Source: an uncultured Clostridia bacterium (GTDB lineage: Bacteria > Bacillota > Clostridia > Christensenellales > DTU072). Taken from it: a stretch of 64,000 bases of DNA. The stretch is from the NCBI GenBank assembly GCA_944349655.1, contig CALVNL010000001.1, forward strand, positions 119,795 through 183,794, in the 5' to 3' direction. Position numbers and translations under genes: made by a program. The number at the start of each line of letters is the position of its first letter. Positions within the stretch are counted from its first letter, which is position 1. Shown one piece after another: positions 5,342 to 40,997 of the stretch. Below the pieces are notes generated by a model. It was not told the origin of the DNA, made no database searches, and saw nothing but the letters and a program-made list of their open reading frames with translations.

Positions 5342-7673
5342 GCTCCCCGAGGTTATCTATATAGACGAGTATAAATGTCCTTTTAACAAGGATATGCCTT
5401 ACAGCGTCTGGCGTTACTACGGAAACAGAGCTTTCGAGTACTTTCCGATCTACCGCCTGGAAATTCTTGCGCCCGTAAACTTAAGTACTTACAAAGCCGC
5501 GATACGCAGCGGAGCCGACGCCGTTTATTTCGGCTACGGTACTCTTAACGCAAGGGCGGGCGCCGAAAATTTTTCCGATCTCAAACAAATCGTTTCCTAT
5601 TGCCATATACACGGAGTAAAAGCATATCTTGCGCTCAACGTTATGATCAAGGAAAGGGAACTGGAGGAAGCTAAGCTTATAGTTAAACAAGCGGAAGAAG
5701 CAAAGATAGACGCTTTTATCATAAGCGATTTTGCCTTGCTTCCCATAATCAGAAGATACTCTTCCGCAAGAGTACATCTCAGCACCCAGGCGGGAATTCA
5801 TAACGTTTACGGTGCGGAATTTGCGTTAAAATGCGGTTTTGACAGAATAATTCTAAGTCGCGAAGCGTCCCTTGCAGATATTAAAGAAATTCTGGAAAAA
5901 GTCGATATCGAAGTGGAAGTTTTCGGTCACGGTGCGCTGTGTTCCGGTTTTTCGGGCGCTTGTCTGTTTTCATCCATGCTTACGGGAAAAAGCGGAAATA
6001 GAGGTCGCTGTCTGCAGTTTTGTCGCAGAAACTTCACTTCTTTTATAAACGGCAAAAAAGCTAAAGTCGGATATCTCTTAAGCGCAAAAGATATTTGCAC
6101 TGCCGATAACATCGGTGTTTTGCAAAATCTCGGAGTTACGAGTCTTAAAATCGAAGGCAGATTGAAAAGCGAAGACTACGTTGACGGTGTAACCAGCGTT
6201 TACCGTATGGTAAGGGACGGAATGGAATTTACCGAAGAAATGTCAGACGCATTGAAAGCGCTCTTCAACAGGGGTAATTTTACTTTGCCTTATTGGTATT
6301 CCGCCGATAATATTATTTATACCAAAAAACCTAATCACATAGGACTAAAAGTCGGTAAAGTTTTTTCCGTTATTACCAAAAATCTCGTTCTCGTCGAAAG
6401 CGACAAGAAGATAGGTAAAGGGGATTGCTTCAAAGTAATGCGCGGCGAAACCGAAATCGGCGGACTGGAAGCTACGGGCGAGAAGCGGAAAATAGACGAC
6501 AGGACTTATTACGTCTGTTATTCGCGTTGCGCTGCGTGCAGAGGCGACGAAATTTTCCTCACTAAATCCTGCGCCGTACTGGAAGAAGACAAAAAAGCAA
6601 TAATGCAGATATGCGTAAGAATAGTCGGCGGCGAACCTATAAAAGTTTACGCTACTTGCCGAGGAAAACTTGTGGAATATACAGGTGAAATTGCGCTCAA
6701 AGCCGTAAGTATGCCTTTGAGTGCAGCCGATATAAAAAATCAATTTTCCAAAACAGGGGAAACCGAGTTCGATTTTCTGTTCTGCTCTGTACAGACCGAT
6801 AACGCATTCCTGACTAAAAAACGTCTTAACGAATTAAGACGGGAAATAATTTCCTTAATGGAAGAAAAACTCGTCAACGAATACGTAAGACCTGAAAGCA
6901 AAACTTACTCATATCCGAAGGAACAACCTAAAATCAACGGTAATTTCGCTTCCTTCGACGACGTGAACATCGGTAAGAAACTAAAGAAAAAATTCCGAAA
7001 TATTGTGTTTTCTCCGCAAAATTTCGACATAATCGATTTTAACGCGGCTTACCGCGACTTAAAGACCGCCGATAATAACGTCTTTATCAAGTTCCCGATT
7101 TTTATTCCTGCAAAGGCGACGGAAAAAGTCGAAAGCATACTCGGTATTTTTGACGGAGTAATAGCCGATAATCCGGGAATTTTCTATCTCGGTAAAAAAC
7201 TCGGCAAATTAACCGTCGCAGGGTGGACTCTGAATATAGCGAATACGAAAAATCTTCTTTTGAAAACGGCGGATCAGGTTATAGTTTCGGCTGAACTCAA
7301 TTACGGAGAACTTAAAAAGTTCAAAGGACTGACCGTTTACGCCTACGGACGGATACCGTTAATGTATCTAAATCATTGCCCGAGAAAGGTGAGCGGAATA
7401 TCCTGCAAAGATTGCTCGACGGTTAAAACCATAGTTTACAGGGACGAAAAAGGAGAATATCCTATCCGAAAGAAAACCGTAGCAAATTATTGCCAGCACG
7501 AACTTCTTAATTCCGAAATAACCGATATTATCGGTAAAATCGAAGGAATGAATTTATATTACGATTTTTGCGATTGCAATTACAATCAGATAGAAAAAAT
7601 ACTCGGAGAGCGTACCGAGGGTCTGAACGGAGGTAACTATAACAGGTTACATCTTTCGCGAGGGGTGGAATAA
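5325..7673 (+). CDS. peptidase U32 family protein (long form with C-terminal extension)
   Basis: 782 aa; LEILAPVN...GADAVYFG start of the U32 fold, Cys-rich GHGALC...CLQFCRR segment; start uncertain (5325 overlaps pheT by 17 nt; alternative ATG at 5394). Confidence 0.8.
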   Translation: MSFYGKLPEVIYIDEYKCPFNKDMPYSVWRYYGNRAFEYFPIYRLEILAPVNLSTYKAAIRSGADAVYFGYGTLNARAGAENFSDLKQIVSYCHIHGVKAYLALNVMIKERELEEAKLIVKQAEEAKIDAFIISDFALLPIIRRYSSARVHLSTQAGIHNVYGAEFALKCGFDRIILSREASLADIKEILEKVDIEVEVFGHGALCSGFSGACLFSSMLTGKSGNRGRCLQFCRRNFTSFINGKKAKVGYLLSAKDICTADNIGVLQNLGVTSLKIEGRLKSEDYVDGVTSVYRMVRDGMEFTEEMSDALKALFNRGNFTLPYWYSADNIIYTKKPNHIGLKVGKVFSVITKNLVLVESDKKIGKGDCFKVMRGETEIGGLEATGEKRKIDDRTYYVCYSRCAACRGDEIFLTKSCAVLEEDKKAIMQICVRIVGGEPIKVYATCRGKLVEYTGEIALKAVSMPLSAADIKNQFSKTGETEFDFLFCSVQTDNAFLTKKRLNELRREIISLMEEKLVNEYVRPESKTYSYPKEQPKINGNFASFDDVNIGKKLKKKFRNIVFSPQNFDIIDFNAAYRDLKTADNNVFIKFPIFIPAKATEKVESILGIFDGVIADNPGIFYLGKKLGKLTVAGWTLNIANTKNLLLKTADQVIVSAELNYGELKKFKGLTVYAYGRIPLMYLNHCPRKVSGISCKDCSTVKTIVYRDEKGEYPIRKKTVANYCQHELLNSEITDIIGKIEGMNLYYDFCDCNYNQIEKILGERTEGLNGGNYNRLHLSRGVE

Positions 7674-12765: not shown

Positions 12766-15015
12766 TCAGGTGATAACCGTTCGGATACCGTCTGTAGCTA
12801 TTTTTTTACCTTCGAAATAGACTTCCAGCGTATAAATATATATCCTGCTTCTTTCCACCTTGTCGCTGAAAGAAAGCACGGTTTTTTCCTTTTCGTCGCC
12901 GACAATCGAGGTATATATCAATTTTTCTTCTTCGGCTATGCCTTTTTTGAAAACTCTGTATTCGTATTGCGGATTACAAAGGAATTGAAGTGTAACTTCT
13001 CCGTCCGCATACTCGGCATTAAATATCTGTTCGGGCATAAGAAAGTAGGGAGAATATTCTTCGGGGGCGTTTTTTATACTGAAATTATAGCTTTTACGAT
13101 AATATGACGGGGTTAAAGGATTGACAAGGCAGACCTTTCCGTCATTTTCCCTGGCGTAAAGATCCGTTTCGAGTTCCACCACGTTGGCAGGTGCGGTCGT
13201 GATTTTTCTCTTTGTCTGATTGTAAGGCAATATTTTATAAACTTGCGCCGAAACCAATGCGGGGAGACCTCCTCCTGTTATCGAAATGTTGTTCTCGGAA
13301 GCGTAATTTTCTCCGCCGTACCAGGCGCATAAAGTAAAATTATCGTTGTAACTTACGCACCAGGCGTCGGAATTATACCCGTTAACGCCGTCCACGGTTC
13401 CCGTTTTTGCAGCTACGGCATAAGGCAGGCAGGAAAGTTTATTCGCGGTGCCGTCCTGAACGGTTTTTATTAGCATATCGGTCATAAGAAAGGCGGCGTC
13501 TTCGTTCATTATCTTTTCGTTAAGATCGTTTTTGCGGTAAAGTATACGGTTTTTTTCGTCTCGGATTTCTTTTATAAAGCCGCATTCGGTATGATAACCT
13601 CCGTTTGCAAGGCAGAGATAGGCTTCGCATAACTCCACGGGTGTGGTTCCTTTAGTCATTCCGCCCAGACTTAAAGCAAGATTACTGTCCTCTTTTTCGG
13701 TCGTTATCCCTGCTTTATTGATAAAATCCAGGCAATAATCCCGATTCATTTTATTATATATTTCCACGGCGACGGTATTTATGGATCTTTTCACGGCAGT
13801 TTCCACGTCGGTGAGTCCTATATAAACGTCCCCGTAATTTTTAGGGGAGTAACCCGAAAAATTTTTCGGTTCGTCCACGACTATATCCGCAGGGGTTATA
13901 ACGTAACTGTTCAAGGCGGGAGCGTAAACGGCTATCGGTTTTATAGCCGAACCCGGTTGCCTTCGCAAGGAAAACACGTCGTATTTCTTGTTGGAAAAAT
14001 AAGCGCTTATTCCTCCTGTTTTGTTGTCGGCAATCGTTATCGAAGTGTAAGCGGTTTGTCCGTTTACGCACTGAGTGTAAAATTCTCCGCTCGATATAAG
14101 GGAAGTCAGTTTGTCCTGTATGACAGGGTCGTAATACGTATAAATTTTGTATGGAGACTTGATAAGTTCGGTTTCGCTTATACCGAGTTCGTCGGAAGCC
14201 TGACTGATTACGTTTCCGAAATACGGAGAATAATCGTCGTTTTCGGGTTTAATATATACGTAATTTTTTGCTTGCTCGTATTCTGTTTCGGAAATGTAAT
14301 CTTGCTCGTACATAAGTTTAAGTACGAGATTCATACGTTCTTTTGCCTTTTCGGGATTATTGACGGGGGAGTAGTTCTGGGGACTTTTGACTATTCCTGC
14401 CAAAATTGCGCTTTCGGCTATTCCTACTTCCGAGGGTTTCTTATCGAAATAGTATTTGCAGGCGCTGTCTATTCCGTAAACTCCGTTCCCGAAATAGATG
14501 GCATTGAGATACATTTCCAGAATTTCTTCCTTGGAATAATTCTTTTCGATGTCTTTGGCAAGTTTCATTTCCTTGATTTTTCTGACGATGGTTTTTTCCG
14601 AAGAAAGCATGGTATTCTTGGCGAGTTGCTGAGTTATAGTCGAACCGCCTTCCTTGTATCCGCCCGCTTTAATGTTTTTAACAAGCGCACCCGCAGTACG
14701 GTAATAATCGACTCCGTGATGATTAAAGAATCTTTTATCTTCCAGCGCAACGAACGAGTTTATGATATCCGTGCCTATATCCTCGTATTTGACGTATCGC
14801 GAAAGGGTGGAGTATTCGGTAATTTTACCGCTGCTGTCGTAAAAAACCACCTGAGCTCGTTCGGCAATAACCGCTTCTGCGTCGAGTTTTACCGAAAAAT
14901 ATATGCTCGCAAAAACCGTTGCCGCAATTATCGCGACAGCCAACAAGACAAAAAAGCATATAAGCAACAATTTTTTTCCTTTCACGGCTTTTTTCATAAC
15001 GGTAGTATGCTTCAA
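12766..15015 (-). CDS. class A penicillin-binding protein (transglycosylase/transpeptidase, PBP1A type)
   Basis: 749 aa; N-terminal TM, GT51 motifs EDKRFFNHHGVD and GGSTITQQ, transpeptidase SAIKP and KTGT; start uncertain (TTG at 15015 or ATG at 14997). Confidence 0.92.
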   Translation of the reverse strand: MKHTTVMKKAVKGKKLLLICFFVLLAVAIIAATVFASIYFSVKLDAEAVIAERAQVVFYDSSGKITEYSTLSRYVKYEDIGTDIINSFVALEDKRFFNHHGVDYYRTAGALVKNIKAGGYKEGGSTITQQLAKNTMLSSEKTIVRKIKEMKLAKDIEKNYSKEEILEMYLNAIYFGNGVYGIDSACKYYFDKKPSEVGIAESAILAGIVKSPQNYSPVNNPEKAKERMNLVLKLMYEQDYISETEYEQAKNYVYIKPENDDYSPYFGNVISQASDELGISETELIKSPYKIYTYYDPVIQDKLTSLISSGEFYTQCVNGQTAYTSITIADNKTGGISAYFSNKKYDVFSLRRQPGSAIKPIAVYAPALNSYVITPADIVVDEPKNFSGYSPKNYGDVYIGLTDVETAVKRSINTVAVEIYNKMNRDYCLDFINKAGITTEKEDSNLALSLGGMTKGTTPVELCEAYLCLANGGYHTECGFIKEIRDEKNRILYRKNDLNEKIMNEDAAFLMTDMLIKTVQDGTANKLSCLPYAVAAKTGTVDGVNGYNSDAWCVSYNDNFTLCAWYGGENYASENNISITGGGLPALVSAQVYKILPYNQTKRKITTAPANVVELETDLYARENDGKVCLVNPLTPSYYRKSYNFSIKNAPEEYSPYFLMPEQIFNAEYADGEVTLQFLCNPQYEYRVFKKGIAEEEKLIYTSIVGDEKEKTVLSFSDKVERSRIYIYTLEVYFEGKKIATDGIRTVIT

Positions 15016-20969: not shown

Positions 20970-21877
20970 TGTATATTTTTATAGTCGGACCGACCTGTAG
21001 CGGAAAAAGCGCTCTTGCCGTTAAAATAGCTAAAGAAATCAACGGCGAAATAATAGGGGCGGATTCTATGCAGATATATAAATATATGGATATAGGTACG
21101 GCCAAAACCCCGATTGCGGAAAGAGAAGGCGTTATACACCATATGATAGACATAATCGAACCCGACGAAAACTTCAGCGTTGCCGAATATGCTGCGCGTG
21201 CCGAGGCCGTTGCGGCAGATATAGAAAAACGCGGTAAAGTTCCGATAATCTGCGGAGGAACGGGATTATATATAAATGCGCTTCTTTACGGATATGAAAT
21301 GCGTTCATACGACCCGCAATTAAGGGAAAAATTGAAATCGGAACTGGATAAAGAGGGGATTGACGCATTTTATAACAGATTAACGGAACTCGATCCTCTC
21401 GCCGTACAAATTCATAAAAACAACGTTAAACGCGTTTTAAGAGCTATGGAAGTCATCCTGAGCGACGGAAAATCCATTTTGGAACAGAAAGACAAGCAAG
21501 ATGCTCCTCGTCCGCATCTGATGTATGCGCTTGAATGGGAGCGCACTCAACTGTATGATAAAATAAATTACCGCGTAGAAGAAATGTTCGATAACGGGTT
21601 GAAAGAAGAAATCGATTTCCTTTTAGACGGAAAAACAGACTTCGGTTCTCAAAGTATGCAAGCAATAGGATATAAGGAATTCTACGATTTTTACTATAAC
21701 GGTTTACCCTTGGAAATCGTGAAAGAAAACATAAAAAAACATACACGCAATTATGCTAAAAGACAACTAACGTGGTTCAAAAGCATACAATCCTGCAAAT
21801 GGGTGAATATTGAATGTTTTCCTGCAATAATTGAAAATATTAAACACGATTATTACAAATTTGCTTCTAATTTATAA
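20969..21877 (+). CDS. miaA: tRNA dimethylallyltransferase MiaA
   Basis: Start moved to the ATG at 20969 (TGATG overlap with the mutL stop); MYIFIVGPTCSGKS P-loop; about 302 aa. Confidence 0.92.
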   Translation: MYIFIVGPTCSGKSALAVKIAKEINGEIIGADSMQIYKYMDIGTAKTPIAEREGVIHHMIDIIEPDENFSVAEYAARAEAVAADIEKRGKVPIICGGTGLYINALLYGYEMRSYDPQLREKLKSELDKEGIDAFYNRLTELDPLAVQIHKNNVKRVLRAMEVILSDGKSILEQKDKQDAPRPHLMYALEWERTQLYDKINYRVEEMFDNGLKEEIDFLLDGKTDFGSQSMQAIGYKEFYDFYYNGLPLEIVKENIKKHTRNYAKRQLTWFKSIQSCKWVNIECFPAIIENIKHDYYKFASNL

Positions 21878-21893
21878 TATAAAGGTATCTAAA

Positions 21894-23120
21894 ATGGAAT
21901 TATTACAAGCTAAAGAAAGAATAAAACAAGCTGAACTTGCTTCAAAAGTATTATTTGACGATATATCGGAAACAGCTTTGTTCAATCAAGAAAAAATACT
22001 CAACGCTTTTTTCAAAAACAAGGTCAATTATTCACATTTTAACGGAACGACCGGCTACGGTTACGACGATATCGGCAGAGATAATCTCAATCGGATTTTT
22101 GCCGACGTATTCGGTGCCGAAGACGCTTTGGTCAGCCCGTTGATAGCGAACGGAACCCACGCATTGACGTTGGCTTTGTTCGGAATTCTTCGTCCGGGTG
22201 ATTTACTTTACAGCGTAGCGGGCAAGCCTTACGATACGTTAGACGAAGTTATAAACGGAAAAGGCAACGGTTCGCTAAAAGATTTTGGCATAGATTATCT
22301 ATATAGCGATTTTTCCGACGGCAAATTCGATTTCGAAAATATCGCTCGTGTTTTGAAAGATAAAAAACCTAAAGCCGTATTTATACAACGTTCAAAAGGA
22401 TATTTATGGCGAGAAGCGTTATCTTTGGCTGAAATTGCCGAAGTTATATCTTTTATTCGTAATATTCGTCCGGAAACCGTTATTATGGTCGATAATTGTT
22501 ACGGTGAATTTACCGAAAAACAAGAACCGTGCGAAGTCGGAGCCGATATCGCCATAGGTTCGCTTATAAAAAATCCGGGAGGCGGCATAGCTCCGACGGG
22601 TGGTTATATTGTCGGTAAAAAAACTCTTATCGAACAAATTTCCTACCGATTGACGGCGCCTTCACTCGGATCTGAAGTAGGTTCTTACGCGCAAGGTTAC
22701 AGATTGTTTTACCAAGGATTGTTTATGGCTCCATCCGTTGTGGCAAACGTTTTGAAATTCAATACCGTCGCAAGTCGCGTTCTTACCGATTGCGGCTGTC
22801 AAACGATGCCTCAATGCGGTAAACGTCCGTACGATATAATAAATTCGATTAAATTCGATACGGCGGAAGAACTTATCGAATTCTGCCGCATTATACAAAG
22901 CGTTTCTCCGATAGACAGCTACGTAACCCCGGAACCGTGGGATATGCCTGGATATCCGCACCAAGTGATTATGGCGGCAGGGACATTTGTTCAGGGAGCT
23001 TCGCTGGAACTTACCGCAGACGGTACGGTAAGAGAACCGTTTGTCGCTTATATGCAAGGCGGACTTACGTACGAGCATTGTATGATTGCGCTAAGAAAAA
23101 TTCTGACAGAGATGTTCTGA
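21894..23120 (+). CDS. methionine gamma-lyase family PLP-dependent protein (YnbB / aluminium-resistance-protein type)
   Basis: Start moved to the ATG at 21894 (MELLQAKERIKQAE); conserved YGYDDIGRD and IKNPGGGIAPTGGY segments typical of this family; usual neighbour of miaA/hfq in Firmicutes. Confidence 0.8.
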   Translation: MELLQAKERIKQAELASKVLFDDISETALFNQEKILNAFFKNKVNYSHFNGTTGYGYDDIGRDNLNRIFADVFGAEDALVSPLIANGTHALTLALFGILRPGDLLYSVAGKPYDTLDEVINGKGNGSLKDFGIDYLYSDFSDGKFDFENIARVLKDKKPKAVFIQRSKGYLWREALSLAEIAEVISFIRNIRPETVIMVDNCYGEFTEKQEPCEVGADIAIGSLIKNPGGGIAPTGGYIVGKKTLIEQISYRLTAPSLGSEVGSYAQGYRLFYQGLFMAPSVVANVLKFNTVASRVLTDCGCQTMPQCGKRPYDIINSIKFDTAEELIEFCRIIQSVSPIDSYVTPEPWDMPGYPHQVIMAAGTFVQGASLELTADGTVREPFVAYMQGGLTYEHCMIALRKILTEMF

Positions 23121-23269
23121 TATGGGTAAACTTTGTTTCGGAATAATAAATTTTACCGTAAAAATTTAACAATGAAAATTGTTGTAAAATATATAAATAA
23201 AATTTGTGCAAAGTTTTTTAATTTACAAATATACGCCTAATTTATAACTATATTTAGTCCCCCTTGCTT

Positions 23270-23305
23270 TATCATTTCGCAAAACCTGTATTTTGCGAAA
23301 TGATA
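23270..23305. repeat. perfect 15-bp inverted repeat with a 6-bp asymmetric spacer; candidate recombinase core (dif-like) site
   Basis: TATCATTTCGCAAAA (23270-23284), CCTGTA, TTTTGCGAAATGATA (23291-23305); no U-tract on either strand, so it does not look like an intrinsic terminator; 197 bp upstream of the recombinase gene. Confidence 0.5.
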
Positions 23306-23486
23306 TATAAATAAAATTTTAAGAATAAAACCTTTCCCTACGCTGTAAAAAAGTATTTTTAATACATATTTTTCAAAAAATCGACTCATTACACCCTATA
23401 AATTTATATAAAAATAAAGTTCTATATCATTTTAACTGATTTTTATATATTTTACCTTAAGAATATAGATTTTTTAACTCAATATA

Positions 23487-23495
23487 TGATATAAT
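23487..23495 (+). promoter_or_regulatory. extended -10 promoter element for the recombinase gene (leaderless transcript predicted)
   Basis: TGaTATAAT at 23487-23495; the ATG at 23502 lies 6 nt after the -10 hexamer and no SD is present. Confidence 0.45.
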
Positions 23496-23501
23496 ATTTT
23501 T

Positions 23502-24584
23502 ATGGAATTTACCGAAGAACGAGATTTGAAATATCTGACAAAACTAAGAAAGGAACTTATACCCTGTCTTCCTTCTTTTTGCGCTGATTTTTTTACAGGT
23601 ATCGGTATGCGCACAACCGCCCTCACAAGATATAATTACGGAACGGATCTGAAACTTTTTTTCGACTATCTGGTTTCCGATGGAGCTCCGTTTTCGGGAA
23701 TGACGGCCTCGGACATAACCGTTAAAGACCTCGAAGGTTTAACAAAGATAGACATAGAACGCTATCTCGACTATATTACGGCCTATTACTCCTCCAACAA
23801 AAACGCTTATCTCAAGAACCGCGACGTTACAAAGTCCCGTAAGTTAAGTTCGGTAAGATCGCTTTTTACATATCTTTATAAATCCGATATGCTTTCCGAA
23901 AACGTAACTTTAAAAGTAGATATGCCTAAAATTCGTGAAAAAGAAATTATAAGGCTTGAAGACGACGAAGTTATTGACGTGTTAAACGAATTCGGAAAAA
24001 GCGATACTTTTTTATCCGACAGGAAAAATTCCTATAATAACAATAACACGAAAATTCGCGATAACGCTATACTCACTCTGCTTCTCGGTACCGGTATCCG
24101 TGTCAGCGAATGCGTCGGGCTTAACGTTAAAGATATCGATTTTACAAACAATTCGTTTACGGTTACGAGAAAAGGAGAAAAACGCTCTATCCTTTATATG
24201 AGCGATGATATCGCTGCAGTTTTGAGCGATTATCTTGACTTCAGACAGGCTCTTCTTGAAAAACATCGTTCGGAAGACCCCGAAGCGTTATTTCTTTCCC
24301 TTAGAGATACCCGCATATCTGTTCGCGCAGTTGAGCTGATCGTAAAAAAATATGCCGCTGAAGTAACTCCCTTAAAAAAAATCACCCCGCACAAACTCAG
24401 AAGTACTTACGGTACGGCATTATACCGTTCTACAAAAGATATCTATGTGGTTGCGGAAGTTTTGGGACATAAGGATATAAATACTACCAAAAAACATTAC
24501 GCCGCAATCAGTGAAGACATCAAGAAAGAAGCTGCAGGAAAAGTCCGTTTCAAACCCGACAACAATCCCGATTCCCCTCTTTAA
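23502..24584 (+). CDS. tyrosine site-specific recombinase, Xer family (XerS-like size and motifs)
   Basis: 360 aa; catalytic GIRVSE (Arg), HKLRST (His-x-x-Arg), LGHKDINTTKKHY (His...Tyr); VTRKGEKR strand-turn motif resembles the XerS TRKGGKR rather than the XerC/D GKGxKER (recalled from memory). Confidence 0.85.
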   Translation: MEFTEERDLKYLTKLRKELIPCLPSFCADFFTGIGMRTTALTRYNYGTDLKLFFDYLVSDGAPFSGMTASDITVKDLEGLTKIDIERYLDYITAYYSSNKNAYLKNRDVTKSRKLSSVRSLFTYLYKSDMLSENVTLKVDMPKIREKEIIRLEDDEVIDVLNEFGKSDTFLSDRKNSYNNNNTKIRDNAILTLLLGTGIRVSECVGLNVKDIDFTNNSFTVTRKGEKRSILYMSDDIAAVLSDYLDFRQALLEKHRSEDPEALFLSLRDTRISVRAVELIVKKYAAEVTPLKKITPHKLRSTYGTALYRSTKDIYVVAEVLGHKDINTTKKHYAAISEDIKKEAAGKVRFKPDNNPDSPL

Positions 24585-24710: not shown

Positions 24711-26258
24711 ATGGAAACGGTAAATACCGATATGTTGCGAGGGAGAGTAGATATATTCGTCCTCAAAGCATTAAGCGAAAACGACGGATACGGATACGAT
24801 ATCCTGAATTACATTCATTCACGCACCGAAGGTCATTATGAAATGAAACAGTCTTCGATTTACAGCGTACTTAAAAGGCTGGAAAAGCAAGGCTATGTTT
24901 ATTCCTATAACGGCGACGAAACCAACGGGGCAAAAAGAAGATACTATTCCCTTACCGAAGCCGGGAGAAAAATGCTCGATGACGAGGAAAAAGAATGGGC
25001 TTATACCAGGACTTTGCTGGATAACCTCGTTTCCGACCGTAATTTCGACCTGAAAACCGATACGCCTCCCTTCAGACCCTCCGATTTGCGTCCGTTAACG
25101 AGAAGAGGTCCGAGGTCTGAGGATAGCGACCAGTCGGAACAGGAAAACAACTCGTTAAAGCAGGTTGAATCCGATAATGATTCCGTAAAGACAGAAAAAA
25201 CCGAAATTACCGTAAACGTGTATCCTATTACCGAGAACGTGACGGTAAAAGAAGAAGTAAAGGAAATAAAATCCGAAACATCGGATAGCGAACAAGTTTT
25301 AATTTCCGAAACCTCTTTACCTGTCGAAGGAAATTCCGCCGTGCAAGAATCTGCGTCCGTTTCACCGACGGAAGACACCTCTTTTACCGATATATCCGAT
25401 AATCGTGACGATATCGTGCAGTCCTCCGAAAAATCGATAACTACCGATGAAATATCGAAAGTGGCGGCAACTACCGATACTGCGGAAAATCTGTATGTAC
25501 CTTTCTCGCCATCACAAGAAAAAAGATTAAACGAAAGCATCACGCCTTCTAAAGTTTCAATAGAGGAAAAATCAAGCGAAAAAGTACTTTATAATCGTCC
25601 CGTTACCGAGAAAGCAAAAGTTTATACGTCCGGTTTCTCAAACAACGGCGAAAGCTATATCGATTTTTTCAGTAATCTTTTTAATGAAAAGAAACCCGAA
25701 GAAAAACCTTCCGTTTCCCGTAACGAAAAAGCGGATAATATAGATTGCTCGCATATTAACGACCTCAGAACCGTCCTTGACAAAGAAGGCATCAGGCTTC
25801 GGAACTACGAACCTATAAATGCGGGAAAAACGTCCATAAAATATGTTTTGGTGAATAAGATATTCCGAGACAGCATTGTTTTGTCATATCTTTTTACCGT
25901 GTTAAGTATGCTTATCGTATATTTTGTCAAAGATTTCGGGGTTTCGCTTAACGCATTGCTAATAGTTTGCGGAATAATGTTGATATTTCCCATTGTCGCG
26001 TTATTTGTATGCTTTAACAACCCCCTGAAGAGGAAAAAAGATAATTTAAGACCGAAGATTGTTCTTTCGATATGTCTTATAATTTATCTGGCATACTTTA
26101 TCGTAAATTTAATTATAAATCTTCTGATACCTAACGGAAACAGTCTCAATTCCCCTGCTACATATGCTCCGGCGGTTGCAGGACTGGTTATTCCTTTCTT
26201 CGGTTGTATTTTCGCATTACTTTACAAAACCGGAAATTATCATCTTAAAAACAAATAA
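24711..26258 (+). CDS. PadR-family winged-helix regulator fused to a long acidic/Ser-Thr-rich linker and a C-terminal 4-TM domain
   Basis: 515 aa; N-terminal about 100 aa is typical PadR (IFVLKALSENDGYGYDI...SSIYSVLKRLEKQGYV...RRYYSLTEAGR); about 250 aa of low complexity; hydrophobic helices in the last about 150 aa. Confidence 0.8.
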   Translation: METVNTDMLRGRVDIFVLKALSENDGYGYDILNYIHSRTEGHYEMKQSSIYSVLKRLEKQGYVYSYNGDETNGAKRRYYSLTEAGRKMLDDEEKEWAYTRTLLDNLVSDRNFDLKTDTPPFRPSDLRPLTRRGPRSEDSDQSEQENNSLKQVESDNDSVKTEKTEITVNVYPITENVTVKEEVKEIKSETSDSEQVLISETSLPVEGNSAVQESASVSPTEDTSFTDISDNRDDIVQSSEKSITTDEISKVAATTDTAENLYVPFSPSQEKRLNESITPSKVSIEEKSSEKVLYNRPVTEKAKVYTSGFSNNGESYIDFFSNLFNEKKPEEKPSVSRNEKADNIDCSHINDLRTVLDKEGIRLRNYEPINAGKTSIKYVLVNKIFRDSIVLSYLFTVLSMLIVYFVKDFGVSLNALLIVCGIMLIFPIVALFVCFNNPLKRKKDNLRPKIVLSICLIIYLAYFIVNLIINLLIPNGNSLNSPATYAPAVAGLVIPFFGCIFALLYKTGNYHLKNK

Positions 26259-26290
26259 GCTATTAAACCTTAAATAACAACATCTATTAA

Positions 26291-26330
26291 AAAAAACCGC
26301 CTTGATTTAAGAATGTTCAGGCGGTTTATT
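26291..26330. terminator. bidirectional rho-independent terminator between convergent genes
   Basis: AAAAAACCGCCT ... AGGCGGTTTATTT: GC-rich stem (26294-26302 / 26319-26327) flanked by an A-run and a T-run. Confidence 0.75.
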
Positions 26331-26359
26331 TATATGTAAGTTTTAGTATAGATTTTTTT

Positions 26360-27454
26360 TCAGAATGAAATAGGTTTATCTTCCTTTTCCAGAATTTTTT
26401 CCGATGTTTCGTTCGCTTGTTTTAGTTCTTCTATTTTTTTTGCTTTTTGAGCATTTACGATATTGGTAAGCCGAGCGTTGGTCTCCTGATAAATTTCATC
26501 GGGAGTTTTTTCATTTTTAACTATATGATCAGAGGTAGGAGTTTTAATTTTATAAATAGCGTTGATATCGGTAATTATAGGTTTTCCGGTAATTTTAGAC
26601 AAAAATTTAAGCATAAAGCTTTCAATTTTATCGGCAAACTTCCACATTAAAATAAATACCGCAACAAAAGCTGCCACTATTAGTATCCATACCGCAATCC
26701 CCCAACCGGAAAAGGGAATGGACATTATATTATCTACCAGTAAGACCGTCCCTGCTACGTTAATCGGTCTGGAAATGAGCTGCACCAAAATAAATACGGG
26801 ATAACTCATTGTGGTAAGTCCGGCGATAAGGCATAACATATCGTCGGGGAAAACGGGAAATATAAACATATAAATAAGCATAGCTTTATCTTTCCCTTTA
26901 ACGAAATTATTATATTTAATGAGCACTTCCTCACCGATGCACCATTTAACCAATTTAACACCGAAAGTGCGTCCTAAGAAAAATGCAACGAAAGAACCTA
27001 TCCACAACCCTATGCAGCAAAGCAAAATTGCTTCCCAGGCAGGATAAAGCATTGCTCCCGCCGCGGTTACTATAGTACTGGGAATGGGTATAAAAGTCAC
27101 TTGCAAAAACTGTATAAGCACAAAAATAGCTTTTCCGGCTATCCCGAATCCTTTAATCAATTCCACCAGTTCTTCGGCGCTGTCGATATTTTCAAAGACG
27201 CCTGTTTTGGCAATTATCGCGGTTATACCGATGATAAGGATCCCGCAAATCACTCCTAAAAATGTAAATTTATATATTTTTTCCTTTTCAAGAAAAATTC
27301 CTAAAGCAAAAAGACCGATAATAACGGGTATAAAGCAAAAAATTACTATTTGAATTATTTTAGAAAAATAGCTGAAAGACAAAGAAGCGACCACGATATA
27401 AAATATCGAGCAAATTATTCCGATTATAAGTCGCTTTTTCTTTTTATCGGACAT
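26360..27454 (-). CDS. TVP38/TMEM64 (DedA-related) family membrane protein with a charged C-terminal tail
   Basis: 364 aa; multiple TM helices, conserved VTFIPIPSTIVTAAGAMLY-type segment; about 90-aa hydrophilic tail. Confidence 0.75.
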   Translation of the reverse strand: MSDKKKKRLIIGIICSIFYIVVASLSFSYFSKIIQIVIFCFIPVIIGLFALGIFLEKEKIYKFTFLGVICGILIIGITAIIAKTGVFENIDSAEELVELIKGFGIAGKAIFVLIQFLQVTFIPIPSTIVTAAGAMLYPAWEAILLCCIGLWIGSFVAFFLGRTFGVKLVKWCIGEEVLIKYNNFVKGKDKAMLIYMFIFPVFPDDMLCLIAGLTTMSYPVFILVQLISRPINVAGTVLLVDNIMSIPFSGWGIAVWILIVAAFVAVFILMWKFADKIESFMLKFLSKITGKPIITDINAIYKIKTPTSDHIVKNEKTPDEIYQETNARLTNIVNAQKAKKIEELKQANETSEKILEKEDKPISF

Positions 27455-40157: not shown

Positions 40158-40997
40158 CTAATTTATGGATTCGAAAGCTTTATCCATAAGCCTACAGCAA
40201 TCGTTGAACATATCGTATCTGTTGAGTACCACGCTTACCACGGTAACGCCGTTTCGTGTCGCGCTTGCTATAAGACATCTTCCGCTGTCGGTGGTAAAGC
40301 CGGTTTTTATTCCGTTACCACCCTCGTAAAGGGATAAGATTTTATTTTTATTTGTCCAATATTTTTTATTTTCGCCGTTTCCTACCGTAATAAATTTAGT
40401 GGAAACGATTTGTCTGAAGGTTTCGTTTTGCATGGCTTCAGAACCTATGAAAGCGAGATCGTAAGCGGAAGTATAATGATTTTTATCCTGCAAACCGTGC
40501 GGATTGACAAAGTGCGTATTGGTCAAACCCATACTTTCCGCTCGTAAATTCATCATTTCCGCAAAATTTTCCACGCTTCCGGCAACGTGTATAGCCAAAG
40601 CAACGGCAGCGTCGTTACCGCTCCGCAACATTAAACCGTACAGCAATTCTCGGACCGTATATTTATCGCCTTTTCTTAAATAAATCGAACTACCCTCTAC
40701 GCCTACGGCTTCGTCAGGCACGGAAACGATTTCGTCTAGGTTACAGTTTTCAACCGTTACCAAGGCGGTCATGGTTTTAGTCGTACTTGCCATAGGTAAA
40801 CGTAAATCCTTGTTGCTTTCCGCAAAAACTTCTTTGGTATCGGCACGCATTACTATATAGGAAGAACCTTGTTCCGCATAAGCTTTTTCATTATAAAAGG
40901 CAGGCATTTCCGCAAAAAGAAAAGCAGCGAGGACTACAAAACACAGAAGTCCTATTTCGATAAAAAATCCAATACGGTTTCGGCGTACTTTTCCCAT
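40158..40997 (-). CDS. D-alanyl-D-alanine carboxypeptidase (S11, low-molecular-weight PBP)
   Basis: 279 aa; N-terminal TM/signal, SxxK (MASTTK), SGN, KTG motifs; start overlaps ytfJ and is uncertain. Confidence 0.88.
   Translation of the reverse strand: MGKVRRNRIGFFIEIGLLCFVVLAAFLFAEMPAFYNEKAYAEQGSSYIVMRADTKEVFAESNKDLRLPMASTTKTMTALVTVENCNLDEIVSVPDEAVGVEGSSIYLRKGDKYTVRELLYGLMLRSGNDAAVALAIHVAGSVENFAEMMNLRAESMGLTNTHFVNPHGLQDKNHYTSAYDLAFIGSEAMQNETFRQIVSTKFITVGNGENKKYWTNKNKILSLYEGGNGIKTGFTTDSGRCLIASATRNGVTVVSVVLNRYDMFNDCCRLMDKAFESIN

Follow-up and report, generated by a model that had tools for sequence, protein, structure and literature searches.

A symmetric dif-like site and a XerS-like recombinase at a replication terminus in Clostridia: a likely single-recombinase Xer/dif module

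Introduction

Four single-recombinase systems are named in the reviews and surveys that were searched: XerS of Streptococcaceae, XerH of Epsilonproteobacteria, XerL of Legionellales and XerA of archaea; these sources make no mention of such a system in Clostridia or Christensenellales. Here we analyzed a 64-kb stretch of DNA from an uncultured Clostridia bacterium of the order Christensenellales (contig CALVNL010000001.1; the whole stretch is called the window below), in which a perfect palindrome precedes the gene of a XerS-like tyrosine recombinase, xer. We consider it likely that the palindrome is a chromosomal dimer-resolution (dif-type) site and that the adjacent 360-amino-acid enzyme is its single recombinase. 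The initial annotation of the window had put the locus forward as a candidate single-recombinase dif module, and this proposal is supported by the terminus position, the conservation of the site, the co-variation of its arms and the presence of the site on phages.

The nearest described system is XerS/difSL of Streptococcaceae (Le Bourgeois 2007, PMC1914069; Nolivos 2010, PMC2965235). Its difSL is a 31-bp site with unequal and imperfect arms, quoted as TTTCCGAAAA and TTTTCTTGAAA (PMC5357621). The locus in the window resembles XerS/difSL in having a single recombinase of about 356–360 amino acids that aligns with XerS from end to end, in having the site immediately upstream of the gene within one terminus module, and in the layout of the inner arms (TTC-G-AAAA / TTTT-C-GAA). 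The last likeness had already been drawn in the initial annotation, and the arms quoted for difSL in PMC5357621 do show the same inner layout. Unlike the streptococcal system, the module has perfectly symmetric arms of 14–15 bp, its host belongs to the Clostridia, and its protein scores below the XerS cut-off.

XerL of Legionellales also works as a single recombinase, on a dif whose arms are uninterrupted inverted repeats of 10–12 bp (PMC9765430). By description, the two systems share symmetric arms, a single recombinase and a mobile element that exploits the site, but in the window the gene is adjacent to the site, whereas xerL of Legionella pneumophila lies >400 kb from dif. In the XerH/difH system of Epsilonproteobacteria a single recombinase is encoded beside a site with asymmetric arms (PMC5241119, PMC3325230). 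The similar protein size (363 amino acids in the PDB chain), the gene beside the site and a place among the best fold matches bring XerH close to our recombinase; on the other hand, the sequences match weakly and in the catalytic domain only (7e-11), and the asymmetry of the difH arms sets the two sites apart.

With XerC/XerD-dif of E. coli (CodV/RipX in B. subtilis) the module has in common the superfamily, the catalytic residues and the terminus location and, with E. coli dif in particular, the apparent integration of microviruses at the site (shown for E. coli in PMC7062461). It differs in using one enzyme instead of two, and its site sequence is unrelated to the 28-bp dif. The location of a Xer/dif system at the terminus is in itself well known, and the window is a clean, typical example of it. 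Very probably the module represents a family-level variant of the single-recombinase Xer/dif systems that is common in Clostridia; no paper describing it was found in the searched literature.

Results

The palindromic site

The following features of the window define the site, the recombinase gene and its putative promoter:

23270–23305, no strand: dif-like recombination site, with left arm 23270–23284, centre CCTGTA 23285–23290 and right arm 23291–23305
23487–23495, plus strand: putative extended -10 element TGATATAAT, read from the sequence, 6 nt before the ATG of xer
23502–24584, plus strand: gene of a XerS-like tyrosine recombinase of 360 amino acids, assigned by Pfam and NCBIfam matches and invariant catalytic residues

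Direct reading of 23270–23305 gives TATCATTTCGCAAAA-CCTGTA-TTTTGCGAAATGATA, i.e., arms of 15 bp that form a perfect inverted repeat and enclose an asymmetric centre of 6 bp, in agreement with the 15-6-15 palindrome first annotated at this place. The 36-mer has no other match in the window when up to three mismatches are allowed (0 matches in 100 shuffles). It is also the sole perfect inverted repeat with arms of at least 15 bp in the window, and ten shuffles of the window yielded no inverted repeat even with 12-bp arms. The possibility of a multi-copy, REP-like element, raised at the outset, was checked and did not hold over the stretches covered: the palindrome is single in the window, and the sites of relatives are single in each locus of ~21 kb. 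The recombinase gene does follow the palindrome, as had been annotated, at a measured distance of 196 nt between the palindrome end and the ATG rather than the 197 bp given before. The position of the putative -10 element, 6 nt before the ATG, makes a leaderless xer mRNA possible.

Further along the window, three copies of the half-site-like sequence TTTCCGCAAAA occur within 350 bp (at 40556, 40817 and 40907). They probably represent a coding or intergenic repeat with no connection to the dif-like site.

The recombinase

The translated open reading frame (ORF) encodes a Xer-family recombinase of 360 amino acids with the motifs FTVTRKGEKRSILY and KKITPHKLRSTYG, both of which had been picked out in the initial annotation. 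Pfam assigned it a catalytic domain of the Phage_integrase family (7e-34) and, at the N-terminus, a weakly matching SAM-like domain. With core-binding and catalytic domains, no arm-binding domain and the catalytic residues given below, it belongs to the tyrosine recombinase superfamily of the simple two-domain type. The top NCBIfam match was XerS (NF003462), with 193.1 bits over model positions 9–356 of 360. XerA followed with 158 bits, below its cut-off, and neither XerC (TIGR02224, 155.8 bits vs a cut-off of 335) nor XerD (TIGR02225, 152.1 vs 330) was reached. The same ranking of XerS above XerA, XerC and XerD was repeated in the homologues, XerS being the top NCBIfam family in all 19 tested (best E-value 1.9e-59).

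Residues R200, K224, H297, R300, H323 and Y333 are invariant among these 19 homologues. The catalytic residues of XerD align with the first five, and Y333 lies just beyond the end of the printed alignment. E. coli XerD gave the best sequence match to a solved structure (1.3e-27), and the best fold matches of the AlphaFold model (predicted local distance difference test, pLDDT, 76) were XerA, IntI4, XerH and XerD. Judging from its sequence, the recombinase is an active-looking simple Xer-type enzyme, nearest to XerS yet outside the XerS family because it scores below the equivalog cut-off; its placement relative to XerS and XerH follows scores of hidden Markov models. The earlier association of the protein with XerS rather than XerC or XerD is therefore borne out as far as the best match is concerned, but membership in the XerS family is not (193 vs 267 bits).

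The replication terminus

Three more features place the palindrome with respect to replication:

21831–23120, plus strand: ynbB-type gene (Met_gamma_lyase family), last gene of the left replichore
23150–23260, no strand: GC-skew switch point, with the cumulative maximum at 23208
26258–26360, no strand: gene-orientation switch, long ORFs being nearly all on the plus strand before it and nearly all on the minus strand after it

The GC skew was analyzed locally in the window and in related loci. In the left part of the window it is about +0.04, in the right part about -0.11, and it changes from plus to minus at 22–26 kb. The cumulative maximum at 23208 lies only 62 bp to the left of the palindrome, which answers the early concern that the skew switch might be far from the locus. 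The PBP gene at 12766–15015, on the minus strand, is the exception to the gene orientation left of 26258. Leading strands of Firmicutes are G-rich, and such a pattern of skew and orientation is the signature of converging forks. Since both the skew and the gene orientation switch here in this manner, the palindrome is at the replication terminus by local skew.

Housekeeping DNA fills the window throughout. The left side carries pheS, pheT, mutS2, thiI, PBP, miaB, mutS, mutL, miaA and ynbB, and the right side rnhA, proC, purB, ispH-rpsA, cmk and others. Around the site the order is mutS-mutL-miaA-ynbB, then site-xer-PadR, then rnhA-proC.

Conservation of the site and the gene in relatives

More than 8000 database proteins matched the recombinase, mostly from metagenome-assembled genomes of Clostridia. 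When one genome per GTDB species was scanned, at least 599 loci with a relative were found, so the expectation that a module of this type would be unusual in Clostridia did not hold. The best 80 loci (45–59% identity) were examined, and a position-weight scan detected exactly one strong 11-6-11 site, TATTCGCAAAA-N6-TTTTGCGAATA, in 54 of them. The position-weight scores of these sites ranged from 20 to 37, with the second-best score at most 12 in all but two loci. Wherever the site was detected, it preceded the xer homologue, at a position between -70 and -4192.

Extended to 14-6-14, the consensus reads (t)a(t/a)C-TATTCGCAAAA-N6-TTTTGCGAATA-G(a/t)t(a). Without exception, the 55 sites (the 54 loci and the window) have a spacer of exactly 6 bp, which together with the two arms gives the architecture of a Xer/dif site. 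The arms are either identical or co-varying (TATGCG..CGCATA, TTTTCG..CGAAAA, ACTGCG..CGCAGT), as expected if a single protein reads both of them; for the window, the initial annotation had already taken the arm symmetry to fit a single recombinase. The centre is only loosely conserved among the 55 site-bearing sequences, as GCTGTG or its complement CACAGC. It points both ways with respect to xer (28:25) and shows a weak, statistically insignificant tendency with respect to the mutS flank (16:7, p = 0.09). The closest relatives (71–77% identity) keep the order mutS-mutL-miaA-ynbB-site-xer-PadR-rnhA and have TCTGTA centres vs CCTGTA in the window.

The skew turned from plus to minus across the site in 39 of the 47 loci with at least 4 kb on each side, and the opposite direction was never observed. 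Another 14 loci offer 10 kb of sequence upstream of the gene but no detectable site, and the flip occurred in none of them (Fisher p = 1.4e-8). The site is fixed between the same converging housekeeping blocks, the mutS-mutL-miaA-ynbB block being kept on one side of it, and xer may stand on either side. Hence, it is the site rather than the gene that marks the terminus.

In many relatives two genes separate the site from xer: one is seryl-tRNA-synthetase-like (serS-like) as judged by eye, and the other encodes about 310 amino acids. This pair is low in GC and both genes point toward the site (L006, L009, L020, L028, L032, L036, L042, L047, L071 and L072). The insertion of a mobile element in the gaps of 1–4 kb was considered and rejected, the gap being made up of these two genes.

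When the site is 1–4 kb away from xer, a lone half-site is often present 58–107 bp upstream of xer, mostly of the right-arm type (TTTTGCGAATAg-like; L005, L009, L018, L020, L036, L042, L047, L056 and L060). Its presence suggests that the recombinase may regulate its own gene. The xer promoter of the window contains no half-site comparable to those of the relatives.

Phages carrying the site

An exact-pattern scan of IMG/VR detected the site on 35 viral contigs, in most cases together with the extended flanks. A xer homologue was present on the examined stretch in only two of these contigs and absent from the other 33. In the contig L117 (3570–8504) the host xer is followed by a perfect site, a set of Microviridae genes (Rep, the replication initiator, a pilot protein, the major capsid protein and a structural protein) and a degenerate second site. 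In L093 (263–4686) a microvirus ends 25 bp before the site, after which come a serS-sized host ORF (441 amino acids) and xer. The third contig, L110, is a microvirus contig of 5.3 kb with the site in non-coding DNA. None of the three microviruses has an integrase-sized recombinase gene. The pattern mirrors that of gokushoviruses, for which integration at E. coli dif via XerCD was shown experimentally (PMC7062461). As indirect evidence, the apparent microvirus prophages in relatives point to the site being recombined in nature.

In fragments of tailed phages (with genes for the terminase large subunit and the portal), a full site precedes the terminase gene by a few hundred bp; it is at 1008 in L098, 1043 in L115, 1278 in L116 and 468 in L104. 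The use of the host Xer by integrase-less tailed phages would be unusual.

Discussion

Evidence weighing against a dif-type site

Several results weigh against the view that the palindrome is a dif-type site served by the adjacent enzyme. No site was found near the gene in 26 of the 80 relatives; 14 of these have the full 10 kb upstream, and nine or ten have less than 0.7 kb of upstream sequence. The recombinase, with its 193.1 bits, misses the XerS equivalog cut-off of 267 bits. GC skew and gene orientation are correlated and do not form two independent lines of evidence. Copies of the polar motif GGGNAGGG that point toward the site outnumber those that point away from it by 60:5 across the loci and by 3:0 within the window, and this bias is confounded by the coding-strand purine bias. 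As a candidate for an FtsK-orienting motif GGGNAGGG was rejected: its bias may reflect gene orientation, and the top words found de novo were purine-rich or Shine-Dalgarno-like.

The evidence on the single copy of the site and on Xer and dif covers the window and the related loci. In the organism itself no recombination joints were found, contigs from four metagenome runs (two of them labelled chicken gut) spanning the site. The sequencing runs containing the stretch are mostly labelled as chicken-gut or bird metagenomes. Comparison of the four runs gave about 16 single-nucleotide polymorphisms in the intergenic flanks and none inside the palindrome; with about 1.5 expected by chance in the palindrome, the difference is not significant. 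Lastly, the palindrome could in principle be a hairpin behind ynbB, as its position and folding energy, given below, would allow.

Alternative explanations

The alternative that survives best, although we regard it as unlikely, is that the module is an accessory system for terminus decatenation or mobile-element traffic, with the main dimer resolution left to a canonical XerCD/dif elsewhere in the genome. It is favored by the span of the Xer and dif evidence, i.e., the window and 80 loci only, and by the survey of Kono et al. (PMC3025954), in which classical dif was predicted in most Firmicutes including many Clostridia and Lactobacillus helveticus has xerC, xerD and xerS together. In the window, however, fuzzy searches with the B. 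subtilis and E. coli dif and with the XerD-arm pattern gave nothing convincing as a canonical 28-bp dif, which leaves 23 kb on the left side of the skew switch and 40 kb on its right side free of it; the check called for in the initial annotation thus came out in favor of its proposal over these 64 kb. Canonical dif was not enriched in the related loci either (24 matches vs 14.8 expected from shuffles), and no second Xer paralogue is encoded in the window or the 80 loci. Moreover, in dozens of genomes the skew switches right at the site, where the main dif would be expected to lie.

Individual dif-like matches in the relatives were also inspected. The best-looking candidate, in L048, was rejected as it overlaps a Shine-Dalgarno sequence in a 29-bp spacer. 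The matches in L007 and L010 are some 10 kb distant from the site; by their coordinates they fall within or next to the PBP-miaB intergenic region, and they look like AT-rich promoter DNA.

Much less probable is the explanation that the palindrome is no crossover site but an operator, bound by the PadR-like protein, by LexA or, in autoregulation, by the recombinase itself. Perfect palindromes are typical operators, a PadR-like gene recurs beside the module, and the lone half-sites upstream of xer in relatives hint at regulatory binding of the recombinase. Against this stands the distance of about 180 bp between the palindrome end and the putative -10 element of the window, so that the palindrome does not overlap that promoter; in relatives the site is up to 4.2 kb away from xer, with the serS-like gene and another gene in between. 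These variable arrangements of site and xer argue against an operator or a terminator, either of which would be expected to move along with one gene. In 46 of the 54 site-bearing loci no PadR gene directly follows xer, and what the site tracks is the skew switch, not a promoter. The site also occurs on the 33 viral contigs without xer (PadR was not searched there), and one phage appears to be integrated between two copies of it. As for LexA, its Cheo box is GAAC-N4-GTTC, from which the palindrome differs.

We give still less credence to the palindrome being a hairpin only, that is, a terminator or mRNA stabilizer downstream of ynbB. It does lie 150 bp past the ynbB stop codon, and its RNA would fold with -17.8 kcal/mol (z = -5.9 vs shuffles). 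But no T-tract follows it and the terminator scan made no call at the palindrome, as foreseen in the initial annotation, where it had been set apart from typical terminators. Furthermore, the arm sequence is conserved beyond what pairing alone asks for, from Christensenellales to Enterocloster and beside different upstream genes, and the spacer is always exactly 6 bp.

That the gene and the site are the integrase and att site of a mobile element, or a remnant of one, is suggested by the Pfam family name Phage_integrase, by the 45% identity of the two best phage-database matches and by relatives on large plasmids, but it is hardly credible, as both of these 'phage' records, unverified contigs of faecal origin, have the site and a skew flip themselves and resemble chromosome fragments, the next phage match is at most 32% identical, Xer families score best with XerS first, both flanks are housekeeping genes in conserved synteny, and the window holds no second copy of the site.

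Proposed mechanism and implications

If the palindrome is indeed a dif-type site, one recombinase monomer would bind each of the identical arms (a core of 11 bp, extended to 14–15 bp), and two sites on a chromosome dimer would synapse as a homotetramer. The active-site Tyr333 would then cleave at the two borders of the 6-bp centre. Strand exchange in two successive pairs, via a Holliday junction, would add one crossover and convert the dimer into monomers, with the asymmetric centre setting the parallel alignment of the two sites. The binding, the cleavage positions, the role in dimer resolution, the septal control by FtsK/SpoIIIE and the status as the sole system are what we infer for the module.

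A more far-reaching combination of these ideas can be drawn up, and we offer it as speculation that will probably not hold in full. In a large part of the Clostridia, the module would have taken the place of XerCD as the sole dimer-resolution system. The order of strand exchange could not come from the arms because these are perfectly symmetric, and it would be set by the centre or by an outside factor. The PadR-like protein would be a dedicated accessory that tethers or activates the synapse at the membrane or the septum, and the site would be a target of integrase-less microviruses and possibly of tailed phages.

Should the dif-type interpretation be true, a major group of gut and rumen anaerobes would use a fifth family of single-recombinase systems, with a loxP-like, fully symmetric site. 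The site would offer a simple sequence marker of the terminus for thousands of metagenome-assembled genomes, and it would explain the lysogeny of small integrase-less phages in these bacteria. The module would also constitute a compact recombination tool of one protein and one site, and it would pose the mechanistic question of how a symmetric site sets the order of strand exchange.

The PadR-like neighbor and plasmid or phage-labelled relatives

One further gene follows xer in the window:

24711–26258, plus strand: membrane-anchored PadR-like gene, with the PadR domain at residues 17–90 of the protein (1e-19)

From N- to C-terminus, the protein consists of a winged helix, a long low-complexity linker and a region matching MFS_1, a membrane-transporter family, below the Pfam cut-off. 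About half of the 80 loci have a PadR-N homologue, placed either right after xer or divergently on the other side of the site. A functional link of the PadR-like gene to the terminus or the Xer module is possible. Such a gene near the site was also noted in L119 (7213–8487), L121 (7223–8821) and many of the loci L001–L080.

Xer-like genes are also present on large Firmicutes plasmids. The 144-kb plasmid pNP144 of Butyrivibrio hungatei (L083) encodes a recombinase of 39% identity, with an 11-6-11 palindrome of its own, ATTGCGTTAAA-CATATC-TTTAGCGCAAT, upstream of the gene at -132. Convergent to this xer-like gene is another gene for a tyrosine recombinase. From this arrangement, the plasmid may carry a multimer-resolution version of the module.

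Two GenBank records from human faeces named 'Bacteriophage sp.', MT835555.1 (L081) and MT835478.1 (L082), contain a xer homologue, the site and a plus-to-minus skew flip. By these features they look like fragments of chromosome termini, perhaps with a prophage elsewhere on the contig. In L082 a perfect 11-7-11 palindrome, TGTTTACATAA-TACATAC-TTATGTAAACA, is located at 5912, 2.7 kb from the main site, and its arms resemble the XerD-binding arm of canonical dif.

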